Source of the DNA: an uncultured Bacteroidota bacterium
GTDB taxonomy: Bacteria > Bacteroidota > Ignavibacteria > Kryptoniales > JAKASW01
DNA length: 64,000 nucleotides
Direction: 5' to 3'
NCBI GenBank assembly: GCA_963703215.1
Contig: OY969800.1
Coordinates: forward strand, 3,151,297 to 3,215,296
The stretch's first letter is position 1, and each line of letters starts with the position of its first letter. Both the position numbers and the translations under genes were made by a program. This document shows, piece after piece, positions 4,367-33,908 of this stretch. Under the pieces are notes generated by a model. That model had not been told where the DNA came from. It did not search any database and saw only the letters and a program-made list of their open reading frames with translations.

Positions 4367-5416
4367 TTAGTTTGTCGGCTCCATAAGTTTGCTCACGGAC
4401 TCTCTGAGATCGTCCGGCTGCAAGTGCGAATATATCGCCGTTACGTTTACGCTCGAATGTCCGAGCAGCTTGGACACTTGGTAAATCGAAACGCCTCTTT
4501 GCACGAGCCATGATGCGAAGGTATGCCGTAAGCTGTGAAAACTCAGCTTCGGATTCAGCTTTGCCCTAACAACGTATCTCTTGAAAATCTTTGTGATCGA
4601 ATCCTGCGTTATCGGCTTGTGGTTCAACGTGAAAACAAACTCCGTCTCAGCGATCTCTTTCCTTCTCGTTAAAATTTCTTGTGCCTTTTTATTAAGTGGT
4701 ACAGTACGGACGCGCTTCGATTTCGTTAGGTGTACCCTGTTATCAAGGATCACAATTCCATCGGCAAGGTTGACTTGATTCCATTCGAGTGTCAAAAGTT
4801 CCATTTGCCTTAGTCCTGTGTTGCCTGCGAATTCTACCAAGTCCCGTATGTCTGCCTTGTCAATCGTTGTCAAAAGGACGTGGAACTCTTCAGGAGTGAG
4901 GAAAAGAGGGAGCTTTTCAGGTATTCTGATTTTGCCGATGCCATGACACGGATTTTCTTTTAGCTGTTTGTCTCTCACAGCTTTGTTGAACGCCGAAGAA
5001 AGGTTGATATAGTCCCTTCTTGCGGCATAAACTGAAGCCTCTTTGATTCGCTTGGTGAAGAACCGCTCAAGTTCCTGTGTGGTTATCTCCGTTATCCTCA
5101 CATTGCCGAAATGCCGTTCCAGCATTCCGAACGTTACCATGAAGGCTTTTCTGGTTTTGACCGTGTGAATGCCTTCGGAATATTTCAGGAATTGGTCGGT
5201 AAATTCTTTAAGCGAGATCGGAACTGTTTCTTGTTCCTGTCGCTGTCTCAGTTCATCGTTGAAGTTGCGAAGGAATGCTAAGGCTTCTTGTTTGAATTTC
5301 TTTCCGGTTGAGATGCGTTTTTCTTTGCCTCCGTCATCGTAAACGAGATAATAGATTCCGTTACTTCGCTTGAATAAGAACATGATGCCTCCGGTGGTTT
5401 GAGTTGAGGCATTCAT
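4367..5416 (-). CDS. tyrosine recombinase / phage-type integrase
   Basis: 349 aa. The C-terminal catalytic region reads ...GLRQMELLTLEWNQV...HSLRHTFASWLVQRGVSIYQVSKLLGHSSVNVTAIYSHL (R, H-x-x-R, H/Y motifs). It lies 122 nt from the 3' end of tRNA-Ser. Confidence 0.9.
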   Translation of the reverse strand: MNASTQTTGGIMFLFKRSNGIYYLVYDDGGKEKRISTGKKFKQEALAFLRNFNDELRQRQEQETVPISLKEFTDQFLKYSEGIHTVKTRKAFMVTFGMLERHFGNVRITEITTQELERFFTKRIKEASVYAARRDYINLSSAFNKAVRDKQLKENPCHGIGKIRIPEKLPLFLTPEEFHVLLTTIDKADIRDLVEFAGNTGLRQMELLTLEWNQVNLADGIVILDNRVHLTKSKRVRTVPLNKKAQEILTRRKEIAETEFVFTLNHKPITQDSITKIFKRYVVRAKLNPKLSFHSLRHTFASWLVQRGVSIYQVSKLLGHSSVNVTAIYSHLQPDDLRESVSKLMEPTN

Positions 5417-5538
5417 TCGGGTGTTTACTTCGTGGTACAGTTAGGTGATAAGTCAAGTGATAAGTGAAATGCAGAATATTTTGAGGGGATGAAAATCTTG
5501 CGTATTCTGCGGGAAGGAAAACCTTTGAAATTCGCTTG

Positions 5539-5628
5539 CGGAGAGGGAGGGATTCGAACCCTCGATACCCCTTTACAGAGTATGACGGTTTAGCAAACCG
5601 TTGCCTTCAACCACTCGGCCACCTCTCC
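5539..5628 (-). tRNA. tRNA-Ser (anticodon GCT)
   Basis: The reverse complement reads GGAGAGGTGGCCGAGTGGTTGAAGGCAACGGTTTGCTAAACCGTCATACTCTGTAAAGGGGTATCGAGGGTTCGAATCCCTCCCTCTCCG. It has a 7-bp acceptor stem, anticodon stem ACGGT/ACCGT, loop TTGCTAA, a long variable arm and T-loop GGTTCGAATCC. CCA is not encoded. Confidence 0.92.
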
Positions 5629-6038
5629 AGTTGAATTCTTCTCACTTTCGCTCTTTTCTTTTTCGGTACGAACAGCGAAAGTACAACTCTTGGCTTTCAT
5701 GGTGCGAACTGATTGCCGCATTTGGTACTAACCATGATGCCAACTGATTTCATTCTCATTTCAAAAAGAACGATTGCTGGGATAAATTACAAAAGAAGTT
5801 TGCTTGATGCAATTGTAGATGAAGGTGATTATGCCTTTCACAAACCATTGGACCCGCGAATTACACTAATTATTCATTTCGCGAAAATTTGCACCAATTT
5901 AAATTTCAATTCTTAAAATTGATGGCGACATATCTCCTGCTTTGTCAAATGCTTAATCAACAAGATAAGTCAGACCCCCTTTTTCCTAAAAAGCTGAATA
6001 CACTCTCAAGCTTAGACAATGAAGATCAAACAGCTAAG

Positions 6039-8126
6039 CTATTTGAGCAGAACCATCTTTTTCGTTGAAACAAATCTTTCTCCATCTGACGCCATGGCAT
6101 TAATGCGATAGAGGTAAACTCCGCTTGAGTACCGTGACATATCCACAGTCTGGCTGTGGCTGCCCATGGTCACGTGTCCCAAATCGATCTCCTGAATTCT
6201 CTGTCCAAGAATATCGAGGACATCGAGCTTGACCGCAGAGTTTTCCTTCAAGTCATACCTGATTGTAGTGGTCGGGTTGAATGGATTAGGGTAATTTTGT
6301 TTCAGCGAAAAACTATTTGGTAATCCTGTCCCTGGCGGTTCGTGCACTATTGTCATGTCCGACAGCGGCCGTTGCCATACCCCGCCACCGTAGGTTCCTG
6401 CAAAAATAACTTTCCCGCTGATGGCAAGAGCATAAACACCTGCAGAGTAGGTCAAGCCGTCATTGACTGCTGTCCAGCTTGTGCCGCTATTGATCGAAAG
6501 AAAAACGCCGCCGCCTGTAACTACAAAAATATTGTTATTGCTGACGGCAAAGGCGCTGACATAATAGTCAGTCAAGCCGGAATTGACTGCTGTCCAGCTT
6601 GTGCCGCTGTTAGTCGAAAGAAAAACACCGGCGTTGGTTCCTGCAAGAACATTGTTACTGCTGACAGCAAAAACATAAACATAGCCATTGGTCAAGCCGG
6701 AGTTGACTGCTGCCCAGCTCGTGCCGCTGTTAGTCGAAAGAAAAATACCACCACCATCAGTTCCCGCAAAAATTTTACTGCCGCTGACGGCAAAAGCATT
6801 AATAAAGCCGGAGCCCAATCCGGAATCGACTTCTGTCCAGTTTGTGCCGCTGTTAGTCGAGAGAAAAATGCCGCCCCCATAAGTTCCTGCAAAAATATTG
6901 TTCCCGCTCACGGCAAGAGCAGTAACATCGCCGAAAGTCAAGCCCTTATTGACTACTGTCCAGCTTGTGCCGCTGTTAGTCGAAACAAAAACGCCGCCAT
7001 AAGTTCCTGCAAAAATATTACTGCCGCTGATTGCAAGAGCACTAACGCCGGTAGAGTAGGTCAAGCCTGAATCGATCTCTGTCCAGCCTGTACCGCTGTT
7101 GGTCGAAAGAAAAACGCCGCCGCTAGTTATAGCGAGAATATTACTGTTGCTGGCAGCAAAAGCGTAGACATAGCTGTTTGCCAAACCATAATTCATTGTT
7201 GTCCAGCTTATGCCGCTATCGATCGAAAGAAAAACACCACCATTAGTTCCTGCAAAAATATTACTGCCGCTAACGGCAAAAGCAACAACATCACTAAAGG
7301 TCAAGCCGGAATTAACTGCAGCCCAGCTTGTGCCGCTGTTAGTCGAAAGAAAAATACCGCCGCCATAAGTTCCTGCAAAAATATTACTGCCGCTGACGCC
7401 GAGAGAAAGAACGTAGCTGTAGCTCAAGCCGTTATTCACAGCTGTCCAGCTTGTGCCACTATTGGTCGAAAGGAAAACGCCACCGCCATAAGTCCCTGCA
7501 ATAACATTACTCCCGCTGACGGCAAAAGCAGTAACATCGCTATTGGTCAAGCCGGAATCCACTGCTGTCCAGCTTGTGCCACTATTGGTCGAAAGAAATA
7601 TGCCCCCGCCATAGGTTCCCGCAAAAATATTACTGCCACTTACGGAAAGAGCCTTAACATCGCTGTTGGTCAAGCCGGAACTGACTGATGTCCAGCTTGT
7701 GCCGTTATTGGTCGAAAGAAAAACGCCGTGTCCAGTTCCCGCAAAAATATTGCCGTTGCTGACGGCAAAAGCATTAACATAGCTGTTGGCCAATCCTGAA
7801 TTGACTGCTGTCCAGCCTGCGCCGCCGTTGGTCGAAATGAAAATACCGCCGCCATAAGTTCCTGCAAAAATACTGCTGCCGCTGACGGCAAGAGCATAAA
7901 CATAGCCGTTGGCCAAGCCGGAATCGACTGCTGTCCAGGTTGTGCCGCTGTTAGTCGAAAGAAAAACGCCGCCGCCTTCAGTTCCTGCAAAAACATTGCT
8001 GCCGTTGACGGCAAGGCAAATAACAAGACCGGGGGGCCCACTCGTTTGCACCCATTGTGCTTGGGATTCATTCCCTGAAGCAGCGATAACACAAAGCAAA
8101 ATCATTATGGAATGAAGATTTCTCAT
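6039..8126 (-). CDS. T9SS-sorted secreted protein with about 13 BNR/Asp-box-like beta-propeller repeats
   Basis: There are thirteen units of about 46 aa of the form GGG(V/I)FLSTNSGTSWTAVNSGLTNSDVxAFAVSGSNIFAGTY (S-x-N-S-G-T-S-W resembles the BNR S-x-D-x-G-x-T-W motif). The C-terminus ...NYPNPFNPTTTIRYDLKE...GVYLYRI...KKMVLLK is a type A T9SS sorting domain. I prefer the start at ATG 8126 (MRNLHSIMILLCVIAASGNESQAQ signal peptide, AGGAAG upstream). The track start at 8294 is probably an over-extension. Confidence 0.8.
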   Translation of the reverse strand: MRNLHSIMILLCVIAASGNESQAQWVQTSGPPGLVICLAVNGSNVFAGTEGGGVFLSTNSGTTWTAVDSGLANGYVYALAVSGSSIFAGTYGGGIFISTNGGAGWTAVNSGLANSYVNAFAVSNGNIFAGTGHGVFLSTNNGTSWTSVSSGLTNSDVKALSVSGSNIFAGTYGGGIFLSTNSGTSWTAVDSGLTNSDVTAFAVSGSNVIAGTYGGGVFLSTNSGTSWTAVNNGLSYSYVLSLGVSGSNIFAGTYGGGIFLSTNSGTSWAAVNSGLTFSDVVAFAVSGSNIFAGTNGGVFLSIDSGISWTTMNYGLANSYVYAFAASNSNILAITSGGVFLSTNSGTGWTEIDSGLTYSTGVSALAISGSNIFAGTYGGVFVSTNSGTSWTVVNKGLTFGDVTALAVSGNNIFAGTYGGGIFLSTNSGTNWTEVDSGLGSGFINAFAVSGSKIFAGTDGGGIFLSTNSGTSWAAVNSGLTNGYVYVFAVSSNNVLAGTNAGVFLSTNSGTSWTAVNSGLTDYYVSAFAVSNNNIFVVTGGGVFLSINSGTSWTAVNDGLTYSAGVYALAISGKVIFAGTYGGGVWQRPLSDMTIVHEPPGTGLPNSFSLKQNYPNPFNPTTTIRYDLKENSAVKLDVLDILGQRIQEIDLGHVTMGSHSQTVDMSRYSSGVYLYRINAMASDGERFVSTKKMVLLK
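6400..8000. repeat. intragenic tandem DNA repeats (about 135-141 nt period) within the BNR-like gene
   Basis: Strings such as gtccagcttgtgccgctgttagtcgaaagaaaaa recur along the gene with few substitutions. This also generates long spurious ORFs in other frames. Confidence 0.8.
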
Positions 8127-8551
8127 CGCATTGTTCTTCCTGATTTTAAATAATTTCATAGACAGAAGTCCTTTGGACAATACGATCAATAGAACACAAA
8201 ACCGTGAAACATCGTTCAATTGCAATCGGATCCCAAACGGACCGAACGCCCTTTTTGTCCTCAAATTCGCACCCTCCCAGTGCTCGTTTCGCACCCGCCC
8301 CTAATCGGCTGAGAAGAACCTAAACCTTTGCATCATGGAACGGGGTCACTTCAGTTCGTCCCCGTGTTCTCCTACGATCCCCGTCCATTTTCGTCTTTGA
8401 AAGACAAGTGGTAGATGCCACGACATTTAGACAGGAACATATTTCACCTCGCAACAAATGAGACGAGAATCAGAATCGGAGTGCCGCACTTGGTGCCACA
8501 TAGCTCGGAAGGATTGACTTTGCAGAGGTTTTTCACGGCATGTAGGGAATT

Positions 8552-8589
8552 ATCAAACCGTTGCCTTCGACAACTCGACCGCCTCTCCA
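8552..8589 (-). pseudogene. 5'-half fragment of a tRNA-Ser gene (acceptor 5' strand through anticodon loop)
   Basis: Hand alignment of 8552-8589 to 5591-5628 gives 33/38 identical positions in the same orientation. The similarity stops in the anticodon loop (GCT becomes GAT). No T-arm or 3' acceptor strand follows. Confidence 0.6.
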
Positions 8590-22930: not shown

Positions 22931-23466
22931 ATTGAAAAATTTGCTCAACTTATTCCCTTTCAACGCAGCCTACTTCCACATTTGGAATTTAAGTGCCAGG
23001 TTATTATACTGGTCATGGAGACGATGTCCATGGTTGGTATGCCAGGGTGCTGCTGAATTAAGAACCCATGTAGGTAAGTGTAACGATGTCCGTGAGTGAC
23101 GTTTAAAAGAGTCATGGTCATCGCGCCGTGAACCCAGCTGTTCAGGAGTTGAACTCCTGAACAACAGAAGAAATAAATCGAGGCTTGCAGCGTGCAGAGA
23201 GCGAAGTGGGATTCAAGTAGGAGTGCCTGCATTGATTAAATGGAGGCTGACCCGTCGAGGACGGGCTCTGACAGGAATCGGATGGAGGCATACACCCCCA
23301 AAATGGCGTATTATACTGTCAAATCGGCATGTTACGGCGTTTGGCTGCAATGTCGCACAAGCCAGGAGACACGTGACAGCATCCGGCCGCTATCTCGCAT
23401 CGTCCGGGAGCCATCTTAGGTAATTATATACTTGACAAAGGCAAATGGATTAGTTATATTAGATAC

Positions 23467-24384
23467 ATGATGAACGAGGATAAAATGAAGAAATTGAACA
23501 GTTTCGCAGACTTGGACAAGGTACTTCCAGATGAAAAGGCTTGCCAAACCTTCTTGATTGACCAACGCTGGAATGGAAAGCCTGTCTGCATCAAATGTGG
23601 AAGTGTCCGTAAACTTTATATCATTAATGGCGGCAAATTGCTTCAGTGTGCCGATTGCAGGAAAACCTTTTCTCCGAAGGTCGGGACTATCTTTGAAGAT
23701 TCGCCGGTTCCGTTGAAAAAGTGGTTCATGGCTATCTACGTACTCACCGCACATAAGAAAGGAATTTCTTCCGTTCAATTGTCCAAGGACATAGACGTAA
23801 CTCAAAAGACAGCATGGTTCATGCTTCATAGAATCCGTCATGCCGTGAAAGTGAAGTCCTTTGAAAAACCACTTGGCGGTATCGTTGAGGTTGATGAAAC
23901 ATACGTCGGAGGCAAGACACTCAAGAATAAGATGGTCCCAGGACAACGTAGAAAGGCTGTCGTTTTCGGAATGGTACAAAGACAAGGTGAAGTCCGAGCA
24001 ATGCCGATCAAACATGCTTGGGTTGAGATAATGGATCCGATTATCAAAGAGAACATTTCCCCGGATTCCACACTTATGACCGATGAGCTTCCCGCTTACA
24101 TCAACACAGGTAGGACGTTCAAAGAACATGGCACGGTCAACCATAGGAGCCATGAATATGTCCGCGGTCAAGTTCATACTAATACCATTGAAGGTTTCTG
24201 GTCTATCTTGAAACGTGGTATCAATGGAATTTATCACCATGTTAGTGAAGAACATTTGCACCGTTACACCGACGAATATGCTTATAGATATAATTCACGT
24301 TCACTTACTGACCCTCAGAGGTTTGAGAAGTTTTTTGAGAAGGTGGAAGGTCGGTTGACGTACAAGAAGCTTGTTGAAGGTTAA
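23467..24384 (+). CDS. IS1595-family (ISXO2-like) DDE transposase with N-terminal zinc ribbon
   Basis: CIKCGSVRKLYIINGGKLLQCADCRKTFSPKVGTIFEDSPVPLKKWFMAIY is the transposase zinc-ribbon. VEVDETYVGGK...LMTDELPAY...HTNTIEGFWSILKRGI is the IS1595 DDE-type pattern. Confidence 0.9.
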   Translation: MMNEDKMKKLNSFADLDKVLPDEKACQTFLIDQRWNGKPVCIKCGSVRKLYIINGGKLLQCADCRKTFSPKVGTIFEDSPVPLKKWFMAIYVLTAHKKGISSVQLSKDIDVTQKTAWFMLHRIRHAVKVKSFEKPLGGIVEVDETYVGGKTLKNKMVPGQRRKAVVFGMVQRQGEVRAMPIKHAWVEIMDPIIKENISPDSTLMTDELPAYINTGRTFKEHGTVNHRSHEYVRGQVHTNTIEGFWSILKRGINGIYHHVSEEHLHRYTDEYAYRYNSRSLTDPQRFEKFFEKVEGRLTYKKLVEG

Positions 24385-24533
24385 GAGTGATATACTTATC
24401 AACCAATTTAACGATTGCTATATCAAAGCCTTCAAGTTCACCGCCCATACAATCGGGAGAAAGAACGCCGGCAGTGAAATCCGCTATGATGTTAGAAACT
24501 TCTTCCTCTTTAGGTAAAATATGACTATGTGCC

Positions 24534-25139
24534 ATGGATGACTCCGTTCAATTAAAATATGCTCAATTAGTTGGACAAATAACCTTTGATTTTAACACAC
24601 TGGAAGAGGCTATGCACAGTGCAATTGCAGAATTAATAGGCATTCCAGATAAAGATGTCGCGGGTCGCATTACGGCCGGAGAAGCATTCCAAGACCTGCA
24701 ACGTCTTTTAAACGTCTTATTCAGATACAGGGTACAGAGCCTGACGCAATTGGAGAGACTTGACAATCTAAACAAGAGATTAGACGGGAACGGTGGAACC
24801 ATTATCGGTATCAACGCTGAACGTAACGAACTATTGCACGGTGCATGGAAGCTGGTAATATTCCTTGGAAAAACCAGGGCGATGAAATCCAAACGTTCCA
24901 AAATGAATCTCAGGAAATATAAAGCCGAATTTCGCTTTGTGGAGGTTGCCGAACTGGAGAACTTAATCGTTAAAATCAATGATACAACAAGAGAACTAAG
25001 ACAGCTCATGGAAGATAACCGGGAATTAATTAAAGACCACATAAAAGCCTACAACGCACTTTGGGAATCCAATAATTTCAACATGGTAAAAAAATTCAAT
25101 GAAAAGTATTATGAAGAAGAAGAAAACTGGCAAAGCTAA
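24534..25139 (+). CDS. hypothetical protein (IS passenger gene 1)
   Basis: 201-aa ORF inside the IS boundaries. It looks helical and charged, with no motif recognised. It is AT-rich like the rest of the IS. Confidence 0.5.
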   Translation: MDDSVQLKYAQLVGQITFDFNTLEEAMHSAIAELIGIPDKDVAGRITAGEAFQDLQRLLNVLFRYRVQSLTQLERLDNLNKRLDGNGGTIIGINAERNELLHGAWKLVIFLGKTRAMKSKRSKMNLRKYKAEFRFVEVAELENLIVKINDTTRELRQLMEDNRELIKDHIKAYNALWESNNFNMVKKFNEKYYEEEENWQS

Positions 25140-25235
25140 GTACGAAAAGCCTCTCAAACTCGACATGAGTTTCGAGGATGCTGTTAAGCTGATAGTCAAA
25201 GCGAAACCTCCGAAGAAAAAATAACTGAGTGTTCC

Positions 25236-25685
25236 ATGACGTTCGATGAATTCAAGGCAATCGCCACCAAACAATCAATAGCGTCCATAATAGGACTGAT
25301 AGCGGGAATACTAATATCAGCCATCTTATGGCTTTTCTCCGATATTCCCCCCGCAATCTTAAAACTACTTGAATTCCTGCCCAATACAGGACTGAAAAAA
25401 TTATTGCTTGGGTTACTTGTTGTCTGCCTATCGGAGGGAGTTTGGATATATAGTCGGCGCACCAAGTTAAAACCCGGATTTGGAGTGCTATGGGATAGAA
25501 AATTAAATCCATATTGCCCCTCCTGTAAAAATCTGCTGACGAATTATACCAATTGGAGTCATACCTCTCCCCAACATTACGCTTGGGGATTTTGGTGTGT
25601 CAAGTGCCAACAAAAAGTATTTCTCAATACCGATGATGGTGCTTCGATTAGCTTGGAAGACGCGAAAGAACAGCTTCGCAAGTAA
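25236..25685 (+). CDS. hypothetical membrane protein with C-terminal zinc-ribbon (IS passenger gene 2)
   Basis: 149 aa. It has two predicted TM helices (IASIIGLIAGILISAILWLF and LLLGLLVVCLSEGVWIY) followed by CPSC...CVKC. It ends 68 nt before the right inverted repeat. Confidence 0.5.
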   Translation: MTFDEFKAIATKQSIASIIGLIAGILISAILWLFSDIPPAILKLLEFLPNTGLKKLLLGLLVVCLSEGVWIYSRRTKLKPGFGVLWDRKLNPYCPSCKNLLTNYTNWSHTSPQHYAWGFWCVKCQQKVFLNTDDGASISLEDAKEQLRK

Positions 25686-25892
25686 TCCCCACCTCTCAAC
25701 AATCCATCTCTTTACAACCTTGCCAAGGTGTCTTAGTTTACTCATTTTGTCCTGCCTTTGTCAAGTATATAATTACCGCAGATTACATTACAAGTCTAAA
25801 CGGTCATTGCATCGAGGCTGAAGGATTACTCCGTTAAATCGAAAACGGCGACGCAGGGGACTACGGATGCCAAGTACGATGCGGAAGAGGAT

Positions 25893-26405
25893 TTGATCGC
25901 GCAGGCGATCCGCGTCGCGTCGGGGCTTTCACTCCTCGGAACCGATACGAAGAATGAAACTCTGAAGTCGATCGGGCACGCGGCCCCTTCCTATCTCCGC
26001 GGAATGAGCGAGACCAAGCTCATTACGACCACAAAGGGAATCCTCGAGGCGGCTCAGAATAATGCGACGGCATTGGCCGGGAAGTACCAGATCTCCGCCG
26101 CCGACATTACCCTCCTCGACACGCTGATCAAGGCATTCGAGAAGGCGATCGGCGCAAAAGGGAGCGGGATGGGAACCCAGAAAAGCTCGAACAAGTCGGC
26201 GAAGCAGGTGCTGAGAGAGATAACGGGTGACCTGGATCAGATCGATACGGCCATGGAGCTTCTTCCCAAAAATGACAAGGATGCCATGGACTTTTATCTC
26301 AAGTACTTTTCTGTACGCGGGATAAAGGATACCGGGATAAGACATAAGCCGCCCAAGCCGCCGAACGATACGAACAAACCGCCCGACGACACCAAGAAAC
26401 CATAG
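25893..26405 (+). CDS. hypothetical protein in a GC-rich foreign fragment, possibly 5'-truncated
   Basis: The frame is open from 25800, and the only candidate start is TTG 25893. The C-terminus is a Pro/Lys-rich tail (KPPKPPNDTNKPPDDTKKP). Codon usage is GC-rich, unlike neighbouring genes. Confidence 0.4.
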   Translation: MIAQAIRVASGLSLLGTDTKNETLKSIGHAAPSYLRGMSETKLITTTKGILEAAQNNATALAGKYQISAADITLLDTLIKAFEKAIGAKGSGMGTQKSSNKSAKQVLREITGDLDQIDTAMELLPKNDKDAMDFYLKYFSVRGIKDTGIRHKPPKPPNDTNKPPDDTKKP

Positions 26406-26605
26406 GGATGAACTCACTCCCGTGTAAGAGCATCACGGGACAGGCCCCGTGTGGGAGTATCACCCCGAAGGGATCACTTCGTGACGGGACAGGCCGCCCT
26501 CTCTTACAAAGGGAGGGCGGCAATAATGAAGCTAAGCTGGCAAGGGGTGTACTGGCAAGACGGCGCGGAGGGGTGGTGAGACGCCTACATTGGCTCCACC
26601 AAGGG

Positions 26606-26640
26606 TTGACTAATTTAGTAAACATTCATATATTTACTAT
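26606..26640 (+). promoter_or_regulatory. putative promoter plus palindromic operator upstream of the HTH-methyltransferase
   Basis: TTGACT at 26606-26611, a 17-nt spacer, then TATATT at 26629-26634. The inverted repeat tagtaaa-N10-tttacta (26616-26639) overlaps the -10 region. GGAG lies 5 nt before the ATG at 26662. Confidence 0.4.
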
Positions 26641-26661
26641 GAAGATGCGAGGAGACAGGAG

Positions 26662-27945
26662 ATGAAATCGATCGATCCAATGGATTTCGGCAAGGTAATC
26701 AGGGAACAGCGTCAGGGTATTAGTTTATCCCTATCAGACTTGAGCTCAAAACTGAAGGTCACAAAGGGATATTTATCTCGCCTTGAATCAGGGAAAGCTG
26801 TGCCATCGATGGAGATGGTGAAGAAACTATCGAGATTTCTGAAGATAGATTCAACTCAACTTGGCTTTCTTGCCGGCTACCTTCCTTCAGACGTTGAAAA
26901 AATACTCTATACAAATCCAATCAAAGCCCCAGCAATTCTTAGAGAAACATTTGGACCCTCAATCAAGCCGGAGGAAATCGTTCCCTGTAACAGGGAACAA
27001 GAAAAGGCACATATAGTCAAGTCAAGGCCTTCCTATGAGTTATTGAACGTGGATTGTTTTCGATGGATGGAAGATCGCAAAAGCAACAGCATTCACGCGA
27101 TTGTAACGGATCCACCATACGGATTGAAAGAATATACCGCGACGGAAAAAGCTAAACTCCGAAACGGCAATGGAGGCGTTTGGCGTATTCCTCCTAAGCT
27201 TGATGGATATGAGCGTCATCCCCTGCCGAGGTTCACAGTGTTAGATCAAGAAGAAAAGAACGAACTAAGAAGATTCTTCTTTGAGTGGGCACAGAAAGCG
27301 TTAAAAATCCTTGTCCCAGGCGGACACATATTCATTGCAACAAATCCACTCCTCTCGCATTTGGTATATGAAGCTATCGAGAGAACAGGTTTCGAGAAGC
27401 GAGGTGAAATTATTCGCTTAGTACAAACACTTCGAGGTGGAGATAGACCTAAGAACGCGCATCATGAGTTCAGCAACGTGACCGTTATGCCACGGTCCTG
27501 CTGGGAACCTTGGGGCCTTTTTAGAAAACCTTGCGAGGGAAGGGTCCAAGACAATTTGCGTAAATGGAAAACCGGTGGTCTTCGTCGGATTTCCAAAGAA
27601 CAACCGTTCTGCGATGTGATAAAGAGTTCCCCTACGAGAGCCAGCGAAAGAGAAATCGCTCCGCACCCTTCCCTCAAACCACAGGCATTCATGCGACAAG
27701 TGGTTCGAGCGGCGTTGCCCCTTGAGGAAGGAATTATTCTTGACCCTTTCATGGGCGCTGGCTCAACGATAGCTGCTGCATGCTCATTAGGATATCGAAG
27801 CATAGGTATTGAGTCTGACACAGAATATTATCGCATTGCACTCGCGGCAATCCCGAAACTTACGGCACTACCATCAAATGGCCAGGGCAGCCTTACCAAT
27901 TATCCTGACAATGTGTCGCAGGAAGAACTATTTATGGTTGGCTAA
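26662..27945 (+). CDS. DNA methyltransferase (beta-class N6A/N4C, DPPY) fused to an N-terminal XRE-type HTH domain
   Basis: HTH: ISLSLSDLSSKLKVTKGYLSRLESGKAVPSMEMVKKL. Motif IV: IHAIVTDPPYG. Motif I near the C-terminus: ILDPFMGAGSTIAAA. The order IV-then-I indicates the beta class. Confidence 0.85.
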   Translation: MKSIDPMDFGKVIREQRQGISLSLSDLSSKLKVTKGYLSRLESGKAVPSMEMVKKLSRFLKIDSTQLGFLAGYLPSDVEKILYTNPIKAPAILRETFGPSIKPEEIVPCNREQEKAHIVKSRPSYELLNVDCFRWMEDRKSNSIHAIVTDPPYGLKEYTATEKAKLRNGNGGVWRIPPKLDGYERHPLPRFTVLDQEEKNELRRFFFEWAQKALKILVPGGHIFIATNPLLSHLVYEAIERTGFEKRGEIIRLVQTLRGGDRPKNAHHEFSNVTVMPRSCWEPWGLFRKPCEGRVQDNLRKWKTGGLRRISKEQPFCDVIKSSPTRASEREIAPHPSLKPQAFMRQVVRAALPLEEGIILDPFMGAGSTIAAACSLGYRSIGIESDTEYYRIALAAIPKLTALPSNGQGSLTNYPDNVSQEELFMVG

Positions 27946-28573
27946 GACGCCTCGATGTTTCCCTACGCCGACGCCCGGAAGCCTGTAAAGAAAATTCGCC
28001 CGCAGTTTTTCCACACCTGAAGTGGTGATTGAAGCGGTTGGAGTCCTCCTTGAAGCGCCTTTCCTTCCCGAGAAGGACCAATCTTTCTTTGTGAGCTTGG
28101 CACAGAGGATCTCCACAAATGTTAAAGGAACAACCTGCTTGTCGTCTTGCATTCCTACCATGTAGCGAAATATGAGGAGCCAGCTGTCTTCAGGGTTGTG
28201 TCCCTGCCATCCGCCCTTTTGAATTGAGGTCTTCACTTCAATTCCCTCGTCTCCTTTTAGAACTAAGTTGGAGCTATAGTGTCCTTTTGGAAGCAAATCT
28301 GGGTGTCCTCCTACTTTCAGGTTTGCAATTAGAGTGCTGGAAACTCGCGCGATATTCTTGACGAGCAACTCTGAAAGGATACCAGAGAAGGAATTGCCAA
28401 GCAGCAGACTCTTCCATTGGGCGAAACCCGTTGTTGACCAGAAAATCATTAATACCATTGAATAAACGGTGCGTTTCCATAACGGCATTTGATACTTCGT
28501 CGACAGTAAGATGATATGGTAGGGCGACATTGCGATTAACATACTTGTGATCAAGTTGTTTAAGACGTTCCAT
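27928..28573 (-). pseudogene. putative type II restriction endonuclease (PD-ExK), apparently frameshifted
   Basis: The C-terminal frame (27928..) contains GGHPDLLPKGHY...KGDEGIEVKTS, which is a PD...E-x-K motif. The protein-like N-terminus MERLKQLDHKYVNRNVALPYHLTVDEVSNAVMETHRLFNGINDFLVNNGF is in a different frame (28274..28573). The two frames can be joined by a 1-nt shift near 28420-28430. It is convergent with the methyltransferase and overlaps it by 18 nt. Confidence 0.5.
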
Positions 28574-28820
28574 GGTTTCCTTGTTAGGTTATTGGGGCCG
28601 GACTGAACAATAAAGGTTTTAAGGTACTGCAAAGAAGCAACGGCACCAAGCTGCGTTCCGCTATTTTCACATTACGTGCGCGGCACGAAGCGAGTCTCCA
28701 TGAAACACAATAATCGAGCGTTGTGATTCGCGTTGTTATACGCCGCCCAGCAATTCCTGTTCATTGACGGGCACGCGCGGGAGGCAATTAGGAGGACTGT
28801 ATTCGATTTCATTCTTGCTG

Positions 28821-29108
28821 TCATTTTGGTTTCTCTGTGGCTGACTCTTCCCCTTTCTTAACCATATCATTCGTGATTTGAACAGACAACCACAACACAA
28901 AGAGTATCATCGCGAAAAGCAGAAGCCACGACGGATAAATCCCAAAGAAGGTAAGCAAGGTTAGGATCACTGTCAGTAACCCTGTATTGATCAACTGTTG
29001 GATGAGAACATGCCTCCGCTTGTGATATCGCGGAATCAACCTTATCCAGGTCGCAAATAAAGAAACCAAGATCGAGACACCTATTACCTCTAGTACAAAA
29101 TAGAACAC
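28821..29108 (-). CDS. small membrane protein (cassette-like ORF)
   Basis: 95 aa with three hydrophobic helices and a charged C-terminus. Confidence 0.55.
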   Translation of the reverse strand: MFYFVLEVIGVSILVSLFATWIRLIPRYHKRRHVLIQQLINTGLLTVILTLLTFFGIYPSWLLLFAMILFVLWLSVQITNDMVKKGEESATEKPK

Positions 29109-29143
29109 TGGAATCTCCTGAAAGAAAAATATTTGATGATGCG

Positions 29144-29198
29144 TCGTAACAAGGGATTCGGCCGCATGTTCTTCAACAACCCGAATTCTGCCGTATTG
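29144..29198. repeat. short imperfect palindrome with an AAC core (attC-like candidate)
   Basis: gtcGTAAC-aagGGATTCGG-(19 nt)-CCGAATTCtgcc-gtattg. It lies 36 nt upstream of the ORF start at 29108 and directly abuts repeat copy R1. Confidence 0.3.
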
Positions 29199-29306
29199 TA
29201 TTTGCTTGCTTCTTTACTGCAAGAGTAAAATTATGATTAGCGAAGGAGAAATAAAAATTCATTTCCACGCACCGGAAGAAACTATGGGGGTGAGGTAGGG
29301 GCGGTA
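29192..29306. repeat. R-repeat copy 1 (about 115-nt intergenic repeat family)
   Basis: It shares ...cttctttactgcaa.ag...aaattatg...aggagaaataaaaattcattt...caccggaagaaactat.gggg tgag.gtagggg.ggta with copy 3, and the core with copies 2 and 4. It ends at the stop codon of 29307..29615. Confidence 0.75.
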
Positions 29307-29615
29307 TCATTGCTTCTTTCTGCTGACGATAATGCCTATGACAATTCCACCTATTGCCCCAAAGCCAAGGATCGGTCCGAATGAGCCGGTTATGATTGCA
29401 TCTGGTATACTCATTAACAAGCTAATGAGGAGGCCATTGACCCACCCTGGAAACGGAAGCGTCGTATTGGGAATTAGAAAACCTATTGCAAAGCGGCTCG
29501 TAAAAGCTCCAGCCATCGCGATATTTCGATTTGGTAAAGCCATGAACAGCATTGGGATGATATCAATAATTCCGAAAGCCAACCCTGCTATGAGACCAAC
29601 TCTTAGTCGTGACAT
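29307..29615 (-). CDS. small membrane protein (cassette-like ORF)
   Basis: 102 aa, Gly/Ile-rich, with 3-4 TM helices. Confidence 0.55.
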   Translation of the reverse strand: MSRLRVGLIAGLAFGIIDIIPMLFMALPNRNIAMAGAFTSRFAIGFLIPNTTLPFPGWVNGLLISLLMSIPDAIITGSFGPILGFGAIGGIVIGIIVSRKKQ

Positions 29616-29627
29616 TTTAACTCTCCT

Positions 29628-29945
29628 TTACTTTTTCGGTTGAGCCAGATCAAATGCCTCTTTTAACAATCGAGCGAATGATCTATTCAACTCCCGCTTG
29701 TCAGTGATTTTGTAGAAGTGATGGAATCTGTTCGCAGAGATTTGTTCGACCTTGCTTGCCGATGGAGCAGCTTTAGAGCGGTCGAGGACGACATTCACGC
29801 CTAGATAACTTTTCTTGGGATGGATAGCTATGAATGCCCGTTCTCGAACAATGTGAATGGATTCCTTTTTGGGTTCCACTTTATACGTTCCGATGGAGTC
29901 CAATAACTGCATCAGAGTCGTTTGTAAATCATCGACGGTATTCAT
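29628..29945 (-). CDS. DUF5655-like small protein
   Basis: 105 aa. The pattern ...ESIHIVRERAFIAIHPKKSYLGVNVVLDR....FHHFYKITDKRELNRSFARLLKEAF resembles the DUF5655 family, from memory only. Confidence 0.45.
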   Translation of the reverse strand: MNTVDDLQTTLMQLLDSIGTYKVEPKKESIHIVRERAFIAIHPKKSYLGVNVVLDRSKAAPSASKVEQISANRFHHFYKITDKRELNRSFARLLKEAFDLAQPKK

Positions 29946-30013
29946 GAGTTTCTGTTCCTTGAATGTGATTGAGTATGATAAATGCTAAACCGTTTTTCGC
30001 AGCCGCCATTTTC

Positions 30014-30098
30014 GCCTAGCGTGATACGGGAAGAAGTCGCGAGACGGGCGACCACCTTGCATATATAATCTGGAGCGTCTTTCTTCCGCATGTTAGCC
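30014..30098. repeat. attC-like imperfect palindrome A (85 bp)
   Basis: The left arm is GCCTAGC-gtgata-CGGGAAGAAGTCGC and the right arm is GCGTCTTTCTTCCG-cat-GTTAGCC. The TAA stop of the isochorismatase-family gene (30093-30095) lies inside the core GGCTAAC on the coding strand. Confidence 0.45.
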
Positions 30099-30650
30099 GC
30101 CGTTGCCCGAAAGGGCGTCAAAATCAATCTCACTTACTTCCTTCGTCTTAACAAACCATTCCGCCAGGACTTTATTGTGGTGCGCGATAATCTGCGATGC
30201 CGATAGAATGTCAGTGTCCCATGTGCTATGAGCGTCCTTTGCCAGAATCACTTGGTAACCCAAACTAAACGCGCGACGGCAAGTCGTGTCCACGCAAAAC
30301 TCAGTTTGCATGCCACATATGACAAGCGTCTTGATATTACGAGACTCCAACTGTTTCTGAAGCTCGGTGCCGTGGAACGAATCTGGCGTATCTTTCTCAA
30401 TGACAGCATCATTGCGCGATGGGGCGATGTCTGGGTGAATGTTCCATCCTGGAGTGCCGCGCTCTAACGGGTGTCCTCGCCCACCATTGTGTTGAACATA
30501 AATAATGGGGACAGAAGCAGCGCGCGCACCACTAATCAACCGCATCACTTGTGACAGTAAGTCCTTATCTCCCGCAATGGGCGGGATAATGGGACTCTTG
30601 AACACCCCGAGTTGCATATCAATCACAATCAATGCTATATCGCGTGGCAT
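30093..30650 (-). CDS. isochorismatase-family cysteine hydrolase
   Basis: ALIVIDMQLGVF contains the catalytic Asp region. TLVICGMQTEFCVDTTCRRA contains the catalytic Cys. 185 aa. Confidence 0.85.
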   Translation of the reverse strand: MPRDIALIVIDMQLGVFKSPIIPPIAGDKDLLSQVMRLISGARAASVPIIYVQHNGGRGHPLERGTPGWNIHPDIAPSRNDAVIEKDTPDSFHGTELQKQLESRNIKTLVICGMQTEFCVDTTCRRAFSLGYQVILAKDAHSTWDTDILSASQIIAHHNKVLAEWFVKTKEVSEIDFDALSGNGG

Positions 30651-30692
30651 ACGGAATAACTTCCTCTACTGATAGAAATCGCTCGGGCAATG

Positions 30693-30830
30693 GCGCCTAA
30701 CGTCCTGCCGGAAGAAGTCGTTGCTTTCGCTCGCTATAAATATTGCGCAACATCGAGTCATCGAGCAAAAGCAATGAAGCGAGAATGAAATGTAAAAATG
30801 ACGAGCGTCTTCTTCCGGCTTGTTATGCGC
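30693..30830. repeat. attC-like imperfect palindrome B (138 bp)
   Basis: gcGCCTAAC-gtcct-GCCGGAAGAAGTCG ... CGTCTTCTTCCGGC-tt-GTTATGCgc. The cores fit RYYYAAC / GTTRRRY: GCCTAAC on plus, GTTAGGC on minus. The arms are homologous to site A. The next ORF starts 45 nt beyond the core. Confidence 0.5.
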
Positions 30831-30865
30831 AGCGCCCAAATACGATTCAAAATCAGCAGCCACCT

Positions 30866-31312
30866 TCACTGAACTTTCACAACCTTAGTCAAGAGTTTGA
30901 ACGTGGAGTCTAGCGCCATTAGCTTAAATTCATACCGCCGTTCGGGATAAACAGTTACGAGTTCATATAACACATTCTCGAAAATACTGTCGGCCATTGG
31001 ATTAGAAATGGCTCTCGGTGAAACGAACAGGTCAACGGAATAAACATTTTGATTGGTAATGGCAAAGATTGCTCGGGCATTCTGCACTCGTGGAGACCAT
31101 ATTCCTTCCTTTTCGAGCAAGGCGACGATCACGAAAGCATCTGACTTAGACACCTCTGTCGAATCGTATAACATAGTGCATTGGGTATCCTTCGTGACTA
31201 TTTTAGCGTATCTCTCCTCGCTGTCACCCTTGGCTTGTTGCCTGTATTGCGCGAAGAGCAAGGTAGGGGCAAACAAAGCTAAGATGGTATACAGTAATCT
31301 TCTTGAAGTCAT
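30866..31312 (-). CDS. hypothetical secreted protein (cassette-like ORF)
   Basis: 148 aa with signal peptide MTSRRLLYTILALFAPTLLFAQ. No motif recognised. Confidence 0.6.
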   Translation of the reverse strand: MTSRRLLYTILALFAPTLLFAQYRQQAKGDSEERYAKIVTKDTQCTMLYDSTEVSKSDAFVIVALLEKEGIWSPRVQNARAIFAITNQNVYSVDLFVSPRAISNPMADSIFENVLYELVTVYPERRYEFKLMALDSTFKLLTKVVKVQ

Positions 31313-31331
31313 TTTATCAGACCTTTCTTAT

Positions 31332-31533
31332 TTCGGGCGTTGCGCATAACGTGCCGCGCGAAAAACGTCCGTGGCGAATTCGATTTTTTAATAAACATCA
31401 ACATAGAAAGGATATGCTATGATACGATCAATCACAAAGCTTTTTAACAAAATTCGCCATGGCGTTTTTTGCGGTGTTCCACGACGTTCGCGAAGCGATA
31501 CAAATAATGGAACAGCGCGAGATCGCGCGGCAC
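31332..31533. repeat. long nested inverted repeat C with GCATAAC / GTTCCAG cores
   Basis: aacgtgccgcgcg (31338-31350) is the perfect reverse complement of cgcgcggcacgtt (31514-31526). The inner arms aaaaacgtccgtggcgaatt (31351-31370) and aattcgccatggcgttttt (31441-31459) pair with one bulged base and one mismatch. Confidence 0.45.
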
Positions 31534-31731
31534 GTTCCAGCGGACAGCTCATGAGCGAAGCTCGCTCGATTGATGCCTTTCGCGTTGAGACAGGAAGTCG
31601 AAACGCGAACGATAAACCTGAAGATTCCATGTTAATTATGATAGTTGAGCATCCGGATGGAAGCGGTGAACTAAGAGGTGTAGAGGAAGACGATGGAGTC
31701 ATCAGCTTCACGCCTGAAAAATGGAAATACA

Positions 31732-32106
31732 TCAAATCCCTGGTGTTGCGCCAAATATAGTCATCCATTTTATGATAATGTTTTTCTTCAACTTTTTCTT
31801 TTTTAATGAACGCACGTATCCATCTACGCAGGATTGAATTTCGAAATCATGCAGTTTTCTATACGCGTATATTTCCATTGTTACAACATGATCATGCAGA
31901 GGAAATTTAAACCTATGCTGAAGCACTGGCGCTTCCATTTTGAACCTCCTAATTTCCAATATACCACAAAGCGAATGTCGTTTCGACGTTCGCATGACTG
32001 TTTTAATGAGCGCGTTCCAACACATGAAAACTATCATAGGCGTTGGATTGCGCGAATACTCTTTTGTGAGCCGCCACGGACGGCGGCGAATAAATTCAGG
32101 CATCAA
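31732..32106 (-). CDS. hypothetical protein (weak call; coding strand ambiguous in 31.5-32.1 kb)
   Basis: 124-aa ORF co-oriented with the array. Competing plus-strand ORFs exist, for example a 69-aa ORF from ATG 31552 to 31760 ending ...MLIMIVEHPDGSGELRGVEEDDGVISFTPEKWKYIKSLVLRQI. Confidence 0.25.
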   Translation of the reverse strand: MMPEFIRRRPWRLTKEYSRNPTPMIVFMCWNALIKTVMRTSKRHSLCGILEIRRFKMEAPVLQHRFKFPLHDHVVTMEIYAYRKLHDFEIQSCVDGYVRSLKKKKLKKNIIIKWMTIFGATPGI

Positions 32107-32125
32107 TCAGCTTCGCGAATGTCCG

Positions 32126-32297
32126 CTGGAACTACCATAAAAACGAATTTCATTTTTCCGCCACCGGCAGCGTGTTATACGCGCCATCACGTTTATTTTC
32201 TTCATCTCTGCAAAGCTCAAATTATGATTGGTCGAGGAGAAATAAAAATTCATTTGCCCGACCTGGAACAAATCATGAAGGGGCGGTAGGGCGGCGC
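32126..32297. repeat. R-repeat copy 2 (extended form: short AAC...GTTATAC palindrome plus R core)
   Basis: ctGGAAC at 32126-32132, the aaaaacgaa/ttcattttt palindrome, GTTATAC at 32174-32180, then the R core (ctgcaaagctcaaattatgattggtcgaggagaaataaaaattcatttgcccg...ggggcggtagggcgg). The left part is homologous to copy 4. Confidence 0.7.
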
Positions 32298-32328
32298 CAA
32301 ATATTATTCCTCAACCAGGTTTGAGCAG

Positions 32329-32700
32329 TCATAAGGTTTTCCCGACCCATTGGCCGACCGTAATCCTGTGACCCTCAGGTGATGCTATTCCAAACTCACG
32401 CATTTCCCAAGGTTTGGTTTCGATCGGAAAGAGAATCTTGATTCCCTTCCGTTTCAGGTCTTCATAATAGCCGTCCGCATCGTCGACGACTAGATAGCCG
32501 AAGTATCTGTGATCACCGAGTTTGCCGGGAGATATTGCGTCCGGACATTCTCCCAGCATCACCATACAATTGTCTCTCTGAAGGAACTTCCAACCGCCTG
32601 GCTCTGACACGATCTTGAATCCCAGAACTTCAAAAAAACTCGATGAGGCTTGTAGATCGTGCACGGCCAACACATAGTGGTTCTGAAGAATCTTTGCCAT
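32329..32700 (-). CDS. VOC/glyoxalase-bleomycin-resistance family protein
   Basis: 123 aa. HYVLAVHDLQASSSFFEVLGFKIV...GYLVVDDADGYYEDLKRKGIKILFPIETKPWEMREFGIASPEGHRITVGQ is typical of VOC-fold proteins. Confidence 0.8.
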   Translation of the reverse strand: MAKILQNHYVLAVHDLQASSSFFEVLGFKIVSEPGGWKFLQRDNCMVMLGECPDAISPGKLGDHRYFGYLVVDDADGYYEDLKRKGIKILFPIETKPWEMREFGIASPEGHRITVGQWVGKTL

Positions 32701-32715
32701 TATTACTCTCCGTTC

Positions 32716-32874
32716 GGTGAACGATTAATGAATGTTAGTGTGCCACTATAGCGTAATGTTGTTTACTGCTTCTTTACTGCAAAGCTTAAATTATGTTTGG
32801 CGGAGGAGAAATAAAAATTCATTTGCCCGCACCGGAAGAAACTATAGGGGTGAGGGTAGGGGTGGTATGTTATG
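32716..32874. repeat. R-repeat copy 3 with flanking cores (GGTGAAC ... GTTATGC)
   Basis: The R core at 32751-32868 is nearly identical to copy 1. GTTATGC at 32868-32874 contains the TAA stop of the DUF4386 gene on the coding strand (GCATAAC). Confidence 0.7.
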
Positions 32875-33583
32875 CGTTGGTGCTACCGTCGTCACGAGGC
32901 CTCACACCAACGATAAGCAAGTACAGTACCATCGAGATTTCTGCGATTGCTGACGGAATGACGACGAAGGAGTGAATCTTTTGACCGAAGTGGGGGACAA
33001 TGAAAGCAGCGAGCACGTCAATGAGGTAGCAGATGCCACCCACGATAAGAATCTCGCCGAGCCACTTGGGAAACATCTCTGATTTGTAAGCGAGATACCC
33101 AAGCGGCACTAACCACAGGCCAAAGAATATCTGCGCAATGAGGATACCATAGTGCTGGGTCTCAAGCAGAAGATATATGAGAGCATGTGAACCCTCGATG
33201 CCAAAGGCGGCAGCATATCCACTGTTGGTTGCCACACGCAAGCCTTCAAACTCGAAGACCGCATTGAGGCATCCGATGCCGGCAGCGAGACAGACGAGGA
33301 TTAACATTACCCTCGCCATGTTCTTGTTCACATGCTTCAGCAGGATGTAAAGGGTCAGGGCCAGAAAGACAAAGAATGTCTGATCCAACAGATCAGCGAC
33401 GACGCCTATGCGAACAAGTAAAGGGTTCGCGATGACATTGGCAGCCGTGGCCGCCGCGTTGCCGACAACGTACATCTTGGGTTCAACAAATCCTTCCGCA
33501 AAGCCGCCGAAGATGCCGACGAGCAGGTAGAGGACGCCCGCGATTCTCGCCGTTTTTTTGTTCGAATTCATTTTGTCATCCAT
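32870..33583 (-). CDS. DUF4386-like membrane protein
   Basis: 237 aa. ARIAGVLYLLVGIFGGFAEGFV is followed by multiple TM helices, a pattern I recognise as the DUF4386 family. Confidence 0.65.
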   Translation of the reverse strand: MDDKMNSNKKTARIAGVLYLLVGIFGGFAEGFVEPKMYVVGNAAATAANVIANPLLVRIGVVADLLDQTFFVFLALTLYILLKHVNKNMARVMLILVCLAAGIGCLNAVFEFEGLRVATNSGYAAAFGIEGSHALIYLLLETQHYGILIAQIFFGLWLVPLGYLAYKSEMFPKWLGEILIVGGICYLIDVLAAFIVPHFGQKIHSFVVIPSAIAEISMVLYLLIVGVRPRDDGSTNA

Positions 33584-33658
33584 TTGATTTTCTATTTGCT
33601 ATACCTGCTTTATTCTGTTTGCTACCCCGTTAGTTATGCAATGTCGCCTAAGCATGAC

Positions 33659-33848
33659 GCATAACCACCATAAACACATGTTTCGTTTTTCCGCCATCGG
33701 CAGCGTCTTATGAGCCATAACTTGCGGCGCAGACGCACCATTATGTTTATCTGATTCTTTCCTGCAAAGCACGTTTAAAATTATGATTAGCGGAGGAGAA
33801 ATAAAAATTGTTTTGACGAGGCGAAACGAATTATGAAGCTGCGGTAAG
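33659..33848. repeat. R-repeat copy 4 (extended, most diverged)
   Basis: GCATAAC at 33659-33665, then ccaccataaacacatgtttcgtttttccgccatcggcagcgtcttatg (homologous to copy 2), then ...cctgcaaagc...aaattatgattagcggaggagaaataaaaattg.... Just upstream, GTTATGC (33633-33639) forms a perfect 7-bp inverted repeat with GCATAAC. Confidence 0.65.
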
Positions 33849-33908
33849 AGGATGTGACTGTATTCCTCTGCTTTGCTAAAAACTCGCCCACCGATTAACT
33901 TTATAATT

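Follow-up and report, generated by a model that had tools for sequence, protein, structure and literature searches.

A probable integron-type gene-cassette array with non-canonical junction sites and no integrase nearby in an uncultured Bacteroidota genome

Positions 28640 to 33870 of a 64,000-nucleotide stretch of contig OY969800.1 (assembly GCA_963703215.1), from an uncultured Bacteroidota bacterium, are an array of mobile gene cassettes, probably of the integron type, with non-canonical sites and no integrase nearby. We refer to the whole analyzed stretch as the window and to other loci by L numbers. An earlier note, made from the sequence of the window alone, had read this segment as an integron-like array without an integrase. 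The kind of system it named is borne out by the accessory island that holds the array, by the cassette boundaries and by the mobility of the cassettes; its account of the sites is not, as these are divergent and half of them belong to another repeat. Two kinds of junction element are present: type B, which has RYYYAAC...GTTRRRY ends and a palindromic interior (four in the window, B0 to B3), and type A, a non-palindromic direct repeat of 100-200 nt (four copies, A1 to A4).

Cassettes and their boundaries

Eight open reading frames (ORFs) of 95, 102, 105, 185, 148, 124, 123 and 237 aa lie on the minus strand between 28640 and 33870, all where the earlier note had placed them. Its calls of DUF5655, isochorismatase, VOC and DUF4386 proteins were reproduced with Pfam (the VOC match being to the glyoxalase/VOC family), and the remaining four ORFs had no match. 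The array is laid out as seven minus-strand units, mostly of a single ORF, each followed by one junction element, and a repeat element stands at seven of the eight junctions among these co-oriented, unrelated ORFs. The 102-aa and DUF5655 ORFs are 12 nt apart, with no junction element between them. The units are as follows.

28821..29108, minus strand: cassette ORF of 95 aa, hydrophobic; a sub-threshold Pfam match only, none at the family cut-off
29307..29945, minus strand: two-gene unit of a 102-aa membrane ORF (29307-29615) and the DUF5655 ORF (29628-29945)
30093..30650, minus strand: isochorismatase-family cassette ORF of 185 aa (Pfam PF00857, E = 1.3e-39)
30866..31312, minus strand: cassette ORF of 148 aa with a signal-peptide-like N-terminus
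31541..32125, minus strand: cassette of unassigned content, 585 nt, with a doubtful 124-aa ORF (31732-32106); no match in Pfam or NCBIfam
32329..32700, minus strand: glyoxalase/VOC cassette ORF of 123 aa (Pfam PF00903, E = 6.6e-15)
32870..33583, minus strand: DUF4386 cassette ORF of 237 aa (Pfam PF14329, E = 6.2e-50)

The type B sites that lie between and beyond these units are listed next.

28640..28750, minus strand: B0, truncated, after the last cassette; 77% similar to the complete site at L091:46-159
30014..30098, minus strand: B1, degenerate, 85 nt; arms resembling those of B2 (repeat families D5 and D9)
30695..30828, minus strand: B2, 134 nt, with a perfect 10-bp stem
31344..31540, minus strand: B3, long, 197 nt, with perfect 14-nt arms (inverted repeat I17)

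For each GTT core we took the 20 nt that it opens, and for each AAC core the 20 nt that it closes, and compared the former with the reverse complement of the latter. With the GTT itself excluded, the isochorismatase cassette and the cassette of the 148-aa ORF each matched their own far end at 14 of 17 positions and the 31541-32125 cassette at 10 of 17, while non-partners reached at most 9. The first 13 nt of the 31541-32125 cassette, GTT included, form a perfect inverted repeat (GTTCCAGCGGACA / TGTCCGCTGGAAC). End complementarity thus exceeded that of every non-partner pair in three of six cassettes; the DUF4386 cassette, a fourth, tied. The three units that stood out start at the TT of GTT and end in an inverse core xxxxAAC plus an imperfect palindrome. 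At least three units of the window therefore have exact integron-cassette boundaries.

The cores quoted in the earlier note are present, with offsets of at most 10 nt (GCCTAGC..GTTAGCC at 30014-30098, GCCTAAC..GTTATGC at 30695-30828, GCATAAC..GTTCCAG at 31344-31540, CTGGAAC at 32126, GCATAAC at 33659 and TCGTAAC at 29144), and so are the stop codons that it had seen inside cores, in GGCTAAC (30092-30098, the isochorismatase stop in the inverse core of B1) and GCATAAC (32869-32875). The inner arms of B3 pair perfectly over 14 nt, and its outer heptamers, CTGGAAC and GTTATGC, match the far ends of the neighboring cassettes, which places the exchange point at AAC/GTT. This is the pattern that a G|TT crossover in a cassette array yields.

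Cassettes also recur in other contexts. Isochorismatase cassettes homologous to that of the window, from a second array and from other metagenomes, have in common with it just the stretch between GTT and AAC, and their neighbors differ. A paralogue of the isochorismatase, with 89% amino acid identity, lies in a second array, apparently of the same genome, which was read on a short metagenome contig (L091); it sits at an array end, convergent with ccmF-ccmE-ccmD. At the nucleotide level it is homologous to the window between 30703 and 30088, a stretch that opens with GTTAG and closes 4 nt past GGCTAAC, and a different, clean hairpin site lies upstream of the paralogue (z = -3.8 and -5.6 on the two strands). 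Because a paralogous cassette is found in this second array, the source genome seems to hold at least two arrays. In other metagenomes, cassette P0050 occurs in two contexts (L093 and L094), whose sequences part immediately upstream of GAC|GTTAGCTGCC, with the same downstream palindrome retained in both.

A near-identical strain variant (L003, 1-90) diverges from the window at 30885 (AGG|TTGTGA), 55 nt upstream of the B2 inverse core and within the last codons of the 148-aa ORF. Another ORF ends in the variant at the TGA of this breakpoint, which does not fit the cassette boundaries defined here.

The array forms the right-hand, distal part of an accessory island that lies between a TonB-dependent receptor gene and a GWxTD-pdxA operon.

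23090..33840, no strand: accessory island of about 10.75 kb, containing an IS1595-family element, an ORF, a structured-looking conserved element, a restriction-modification (R-M) pair and the array

Variation among relatives, which the earlier note had named as a check on its reading, was found: the island is missing from four syntenic relatives (L087-L090), which carry the names Candidatus Kryptoniota and Bacteroidetes bacterium and whose GWxTD proteins are 58-70% identical to that of the window. Together with type IX secretion system sorting domains, these names assign the organism to the Fibrobacterota-Chlorobiota-Bacteroidota (FCB) group. Gene order in the four is GGDEF - aldehyde dehydrogenase - PIG-L - (TonB-dependent receptor) - GWxTD - PdxA. 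Only 85 nt separate the homologues of window positions 22973-23089 and 33841 onward in L087, and the intervening ~10.75 kb of the window are therefore an island. In L088-L090 the GWxTD gene directly follows the PIG-L or the TonB-dependent receptor gene.

Palindromic and non-palindromic junction elements

B2 and B3 carry ends of the RYYYAAC/GTTRRRY form (GCATAAC/GTTAGGC and CTGGAAC/GTTATGC, respectively). B2 runs from GCATAAC through the spacer AAG, the stem CCGGAAGAAG ... CTTCTTCCGG and the spacer CAGGAC to GTTAGGC, and folds as single-stranded DNA (30688-30835) with -28.4 kcal/mol (z = -2.8). B3 has no spacer: CTGGAAC is joined directly to GTGCCGCGCGA, and the partner arm TCGCGCGGCAC directly to GTTATGC. 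Its fold (31337-31547) reaches -52.3 kcal/mol (z = -5.35), and none of 200 shuffles was equally stable. The core of B1 is mutated to GCTAGGC, and its hairpin is not significant (30001-30110, z = +1.9). B0 retains the inverse core GTATAAC, an AA spacer and the left stem arm CGCGAATCAC; the partner arm is absent, and the site folds no better than its shuffles (z = +0.6).

On the cargo strand, the type B geometry consists of an R box of 6-9 bp, a 0-3 nt spacer that follows the inverse core, an unbroken stem of 10-12 bp that lacks a bulged base, and a second spacer of 4-6 nt, mostly with AC as its last letters, ahead of the core. Six sites share this one geometry with stems that are all different (CCGGAAGAAG, CGGCAATCATG, GGCAACACG, CAACAAAAATG, CGCCGCACCACG and GTGCCGCGCGA), and fold z-scores range from -2.8 to -5.6 (B2, B3 and the L091 site). 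That the stems covary, differing in sequence yet sharing a geometry, argues that the fold itself is under selection. A surplus of 3 unpaired nt always lies on the core side (cargo strand) and, by inference, could take the place of extrahelical bases in the choice of strand. We conclude that type B sites are a divergent attC-like class. Their geometry offers a natural test of the roles of the unpaired spacer and the extrahelical bases in site recognition and strand choice.

We compared these sites with canonical attC sites using two covariance models, which serve as surrogates for IntegronFinder's own attC model. R1 was built from 13 attC sites of class 1 integrons on plasmids, and R2 from the same 13 plus seven archaeal attC sites from PMC9668308 Data S9, which lists sites chosen for recombination assays (20 in all). 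The training sites scored 34-80 bits with R1, with a strongly strand-specific signal. In the unrelated array L095, which contains an isochorismatase homologue and canonical attC sites, R2 gave three out-of-sample canonical sites 29.3, 24.8 and 19.9 bits. Canonical geometry (spacers of 5 nt and 5-6 nt, a bulged L box and at least 7 of 8 L pairs) is present in 20 of 22 reference attC sites. In length, B1 (85 nt) and B2 (134 nt) fall inside the canonical range of ~57-141 nt, and B3 (197 nt) and type A (160-210 nt) outside it. A rule-based scan of the window for canonical geometry did not discriminate (36 matches vs ~31 in shuffles), and a third covariance model, for type B, was dropped when MAFFT failed to register stems with differing spacer lengths. 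Neither the window, searched at gathering and E-value thresholds, nor five related loci, searched at the gathering threshold, had a relevant match in Rfam.

Standard detection tools probably miss these junction sites. IntegronFinder defines clusters of attC sites lacking an integrase (CALIN) as two or more attC sites that its model detects within 4 kb, with no intI within 4 kb; intI is indeed absent here, and the surrogate models detect no such sites. Integron surveys rest on a covariance model of canonical attC sites. If IntegronFinder's model behaves like R1 and R2, arrays of this kind are counted as ordinary chromosome, and integron-type gene capture in bacteria of the FCB group would be under-counted.

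Isochorismatase homologues in L095 (2858-4372), L096 and L097 stand in long co-oriented arrays of 9 to ~25 small unrelated genes. L096 and L097 gave at most one borderline R2 match, and no integrase lies within 10 kb. In L093, an IS110-family transposase (83-1444) adjoins a type B site. A second type B site there (4094-4237) ends in GGTACGA, not GTTRRRY, which is reminiscent of GGTAGG/GGTAAG near the right end of type A.

The type A copies of the window are as follows.

29144..29306, plus strand: A1, short form; left end TCGTAAC, right end abutting the stop of the 102-aa ORF; fold z = -0.17
32126..32325, plus strand: A2, long form; left module ending in GTTATAC
32716..32875, plus strand: A3, short form; right end GTTATGC overlapping the DUF4386 stop codon; fold z = +0.21
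33659..33840, plus strand: A4, long form, at the array's upstream end; truncated at ancestral intergenic DNA (GCTGCG|GTAAG)

Homology to the relatives L087 and L089 begins beside A4, at 33841 and 33868. Four copies of an invariant type A 16-mer, AGGAGAAATAAAAATT, are present in the window, where 0.14 would be expected, and the nearly invariant core reads ...CTGCAAAGC..TAAAATTATGATTAGCGGAGGAGAAATAAAAATT... From its left end, a type A element begins with the motif AATGRCGCMTAAC, which is like an extended inverse core; 6-13 nt further on, 13 of 15 copies have a small hairpin whose sequence varies, and optional modules, the core and a G-rich segment come next. AAC or GTT-type cores stand at the outer ends of most copies, some of which end in a type B-like right arm closing with GTTRRRY.

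Type A is always antisense to the cargo genes, in the window and at related loci. Each window junction with an element holds one, type A or type B and never both, which suggests that the two kinds are equivalent. Both are confined to 28.6-33.9 kb; the remaining 59 kb of the window contain no copy. The earlier note had held that scattered copies, as of repetitive extragenic palindromic (REP) elements, would speak against an array; beyond the window, too, copies are clustered in arrays. When genomes were scanned at one per species, the type A core turned up in a single metagenome-assembled genome (MAG), uncultured Bacteroidetes bacterium CAWEES010000002.1 (L004, L005), and a metagenome scan found five true loci on four contigs (L019, L035, L039 with L051, and L055). 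L087-L097, the plasmid collection and the phage collection gave no match. Type A was thus found solely in similar arrays of a few uncultured Bacteroidetes-related (FCB-group) genomes.

At the related loci, type A sits between co-oriented unrelated genes, including those for leucine carboxyl methyltransferase, RibD_C, SnoaL, glyoxalase, beta-lactamase-family, TfoX_N, GDSL lipase, GH43 and GH127 proteins and R-M genes. Leucine carboxyl methyltransferase, SnoaL, DNA methylase and restriction endonuclease, which are cargo of these arrays, are families listed as enriched in integron cassettes (PMC9668308).

Other identities considered for type A were rejected. A short peptide gene was rejected because indels break the frame of the core after ~12 codons and third positions are invariant. 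Neither a structured RNA nor a structured DNA is indicated, as RNAalifold gave no consensus for 14 copies and single copies folded at the level of shuffles (z from about -1.2 to +0.2 for A1-A4). We found no consistent sigma-70-type promoter or terminator-like signal, and a Bacteroidetes -33/-7 reading was unconvincing. For a remnant of an IS110 end, there was no similarity to the IS110 flanks in L093 or to L087-L097. We interpret type A elements either as rearranged derivatives or as a second junction-site class, and a protein probably binds them as duplex DNA. Sharply conserved and locked in orientation, they present a defined target for finding a binding protein or recombinase.

Recombinase and alternative explanations

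The sole tyrosine recombinase of the window (4367-5416) scored 75 bits against a TIGR02249 cut-off of 265 and is therefore not IntI, in keeping with the earlier note, which had seen no IntI gene next to the array; we rejected this tRNA-linked integrase as a candidate. Another candidate, a tyrosine recombinase in L054 that is 31% identical to IntI1, was set aside as an Xer-size protein of an unrelated AT-rich genome in which type A is absent. The combination of intI (with the extra domain typical of it), attI and the Pc promoter that marks a complete integron was not found beside the array, and the array's upstream end abuts the GWxTD promoter region.

As the probable agent we favor a recombinase of the IntI type that works in trans on type B sites. 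On this model a tyrosine recombinase of that type, whose gene either lies elsewhere in the genome or has been lost, would insert and excise cassettes; it would act on the folded single strand of type B sites, with crossover at G|TT. Integrons have been described before in the Bacteroidetes/Chlorobi group, including in Chlorobi, Ignavibacteriae and Salinibacter (PMC9024848), and so integrons as a class are not new here.

Several results weigh against an integron-type array. No IntI gene was detected in the 64-kb window with profiles or by tblastn with IntI1, nor in any examined locus with type A or type B arrays. The junctions, in which the earlier note had seen the architecture of attC sites, are not canonical attC sites: the best match in the window with filters off, B2, reached 9.5-10.6 bits (E = 0.4-1), equal to a decoy, and R1 and R2 found nothing better than E = 0.4 over the type A and type B array loci. 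The canonical spacer and extrahelical base are absent from type B. The same note's statement that almost every spacer is an imperfect palindrome did not hold either, as folding as single-stranded DNA is significant at only two of eight junctions (B2 and B3; L091:38-160 also folds significantly, and B0, B1 and A1-A4 do not) and four spacers hold the non-palindromic direct repeat. Type A has no stem beside its cores, and RNAalifold predicts no pairs in its 14 copies. Two of the six cassettes lack end complementarity, and in two others it is not cassette-specific, the DUF4386 cassette being tied with a non-partner. Similarity between the window and L091 isochorismatase cassettes is lost right after the inverse core, whereas in the integron model the downstream site is part of the cassette. 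Finally, a RibD_C gene common to two type A arrays has no recognizable border site.

We regard as conceivable, if doubtful, that type A, and possibly the compressed-spacer type B too, marks a cassette-capture system invisible to current integron finders, either as a new class of sites used by a divergent integrase in a lineage related to Kryptoniota/Bacteroidota or as the target of a different recombinase that reads the ~50-nt conserved duplex core and not a folded strand.

An unlikely alternative is a separate cassette system of the FCB lineage, run by a non-integron recombinase (Xer-like, another tyrosine recombinase or IS110-type) that would read the duplex type A core together with AATGRCGCMTAAC and not a folded strand. 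This motif presumably resembles the XerC arm of dif (GGTGCGCATAA). Such a system would account for a core that stays near-invariant across four or more genomes or metagenomes despite differing cargo, for elements that are non-palindromic, without a consensus fold and always antisense to the cargo, and for the failure of canonical attC models on the sites; the IS110-family transposase beside a type B site in L093 also fits. However, no recombinase of any kind was found linked to type A arrays in ~60 kb of related loci, and the type B sites of the same array, with their covarying hairpins and GTT/AAC exchange, point to the integron mode. A precedent is rAID-1 of Bacteroidales, in which integron-like arrays occur with an XerD-family recombinase (bioRxiv 10.1101/471110). 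The arrays are alike in their co-oriented, integron-like organization, their repetitive intergenic sequences and the broad bacterial group. However, rAID-1 has its recombinase at the 5' end, low GC and immunity cargo, none of which was seen here: no recombinase lies at either array end, and the cargo consists of enzymes and DUF proteins and is typical of integrons, with immunity genes absent.

It is decidedly improbable that the elements are lineage-specific REP-like repeats, or repeats like miniature inverted-repeat transposable elements, in a variable island whose genes are shuffled by homologous recombination between repeats. Type A is indeed a mosaic whose modules are present or absent by copy. 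In related arrays some junctions are free of repeats, and some flanked genes are large (GH43, GH127; 500-650 aa). The L003 break, inside the 148-aa ORF and 55 nt off the B2 core, would also suit this explanation. Such repeats would not be expected to be confined to the array, to keep a strict orientation relative to genes, or to place the unusual core pair GTTCCAGCGGACA/TGTCCGCTGGAAC at the two ends of one single cassette, and homology between cassette copies stops at the cores while stems covary.

That type A is a repeated ORF-less cassette or regulatory insert (promoter, small RNA or short peptide gene) rather than a recombination site is highly improbable: the core does read as ATG followed by nine conserved codons (MISGGEIKI), with GGAGGAG inside it, and long copies end, on the cargo strand, in a ~55-nt GTATAAC-to-GTT unit with a small variable hairpin, but the frame is lost after ~12 codons, conservation is at the nucleotide level with third positions included, promoter, terminator, Rfam and consensus-fold searches came out empty, and type A and type B exclude each other at window junctions.

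One of the known systems closest to the array described here is CALIN, the class of integron cassette arrays that lack an integrase (Cury et al. 2016, PMC4889954). Shared features are co-oriented unrelated cassettes with xxxxAAC / GTTxxxx boundaries, a stop codon in the inverse core, a cassette 5' end that pairs with its own inverse core, palindromes that vary in sequence and keep their structure, accessory cargo such as isochorismatase, glyoxalase and DUF proteins, and the lack of a nearby integrase. Unlike CALIN, the window has sites that fail canonical attC models, spacers of 0-3 / 4-6 nt rather than 5 / 5-6, a bulge-free L stem, conserved arms ~12 nt past the heptamers, one site of 197 nt and a non-palindromic element at half of its junctions. 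Sedentary chromosomal integrons, such as those with Vibrio cholerae repeats, likewise have a lineage-specific conserved repeat of 100-200 nt at many junctions, arrays that exceed 10 kb (here in related genomes) and paralogous cassettes in one genome. In Vibrio, however, the repeats form canonical palindromes and arrays begin at intI/attI, whereas type A is non-folding and no integrase is seen. The pdif modules of Acinetobacter plasmids have 28-bp duplex sites with a 6-bp spacer. They, too, are discrete modules of genes, and the inverted cores at their borders bind a recombinase and look like Xer sites; in contrast, the cores here are 85-200 nt apart, and some enclose hairpins.

Neighboring features of the island and the window

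A DNA methylase (N6_N4_Mtase) with an N-terminal helix-turn-helix domain and a convergent, overlapping 234-aa ORF with no family match occupy 26662-28632 and probably form an R-M pair. The pair directly abuts B0, the array's truncated last site, and R-M genes adjoin type A elements in L035, L019 and L055 as well.

Next to the pair is a GC-rich segment of ~150 nt (26412-26560) with hairpins (e.g., GCCGCCCTC...GAGGGCGGC) and a repeated CACGGGACAGGCC motif, with an RNA fold z of -2.6 and no Rfam match. Its counterpart in the other MAG (L004 4683-4783) is 82-94% conserved, and in both genomes the segment lies 1.6-2 kb off the 3' side of the type A array. A CGGGACAGGCC motif also follows the paralogous isochorismatase cassette in L091.

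The IS1595-family element of the island spans 23413-25783 and is bounded by terminal inverted repeats of 31 nt (23413-23443 and 25753-25783) with 94% complementarity. It encodes a transposase (23467-24384) and two passenger ORFs at 24534-25139 and 25236-25685.

Outside the island, the tyrosine recombinase gene at 4367-5416 adjoins a tRNA-Ser gene (5538-5628), and a 40-nt, 88%-identical copy of the tRNA 3' end is present at 8550-8589. The recombinase/tRNA-Ser pair and the tRNA copy resemble the opposite ends of an integrated element of small size. This putative element (4367-8589) contains the gene for a 751-aa protein with a type IX secretion system (T9SS) sorting domain (6039-8294), which carries tandem repeats of ~120-123 nt.

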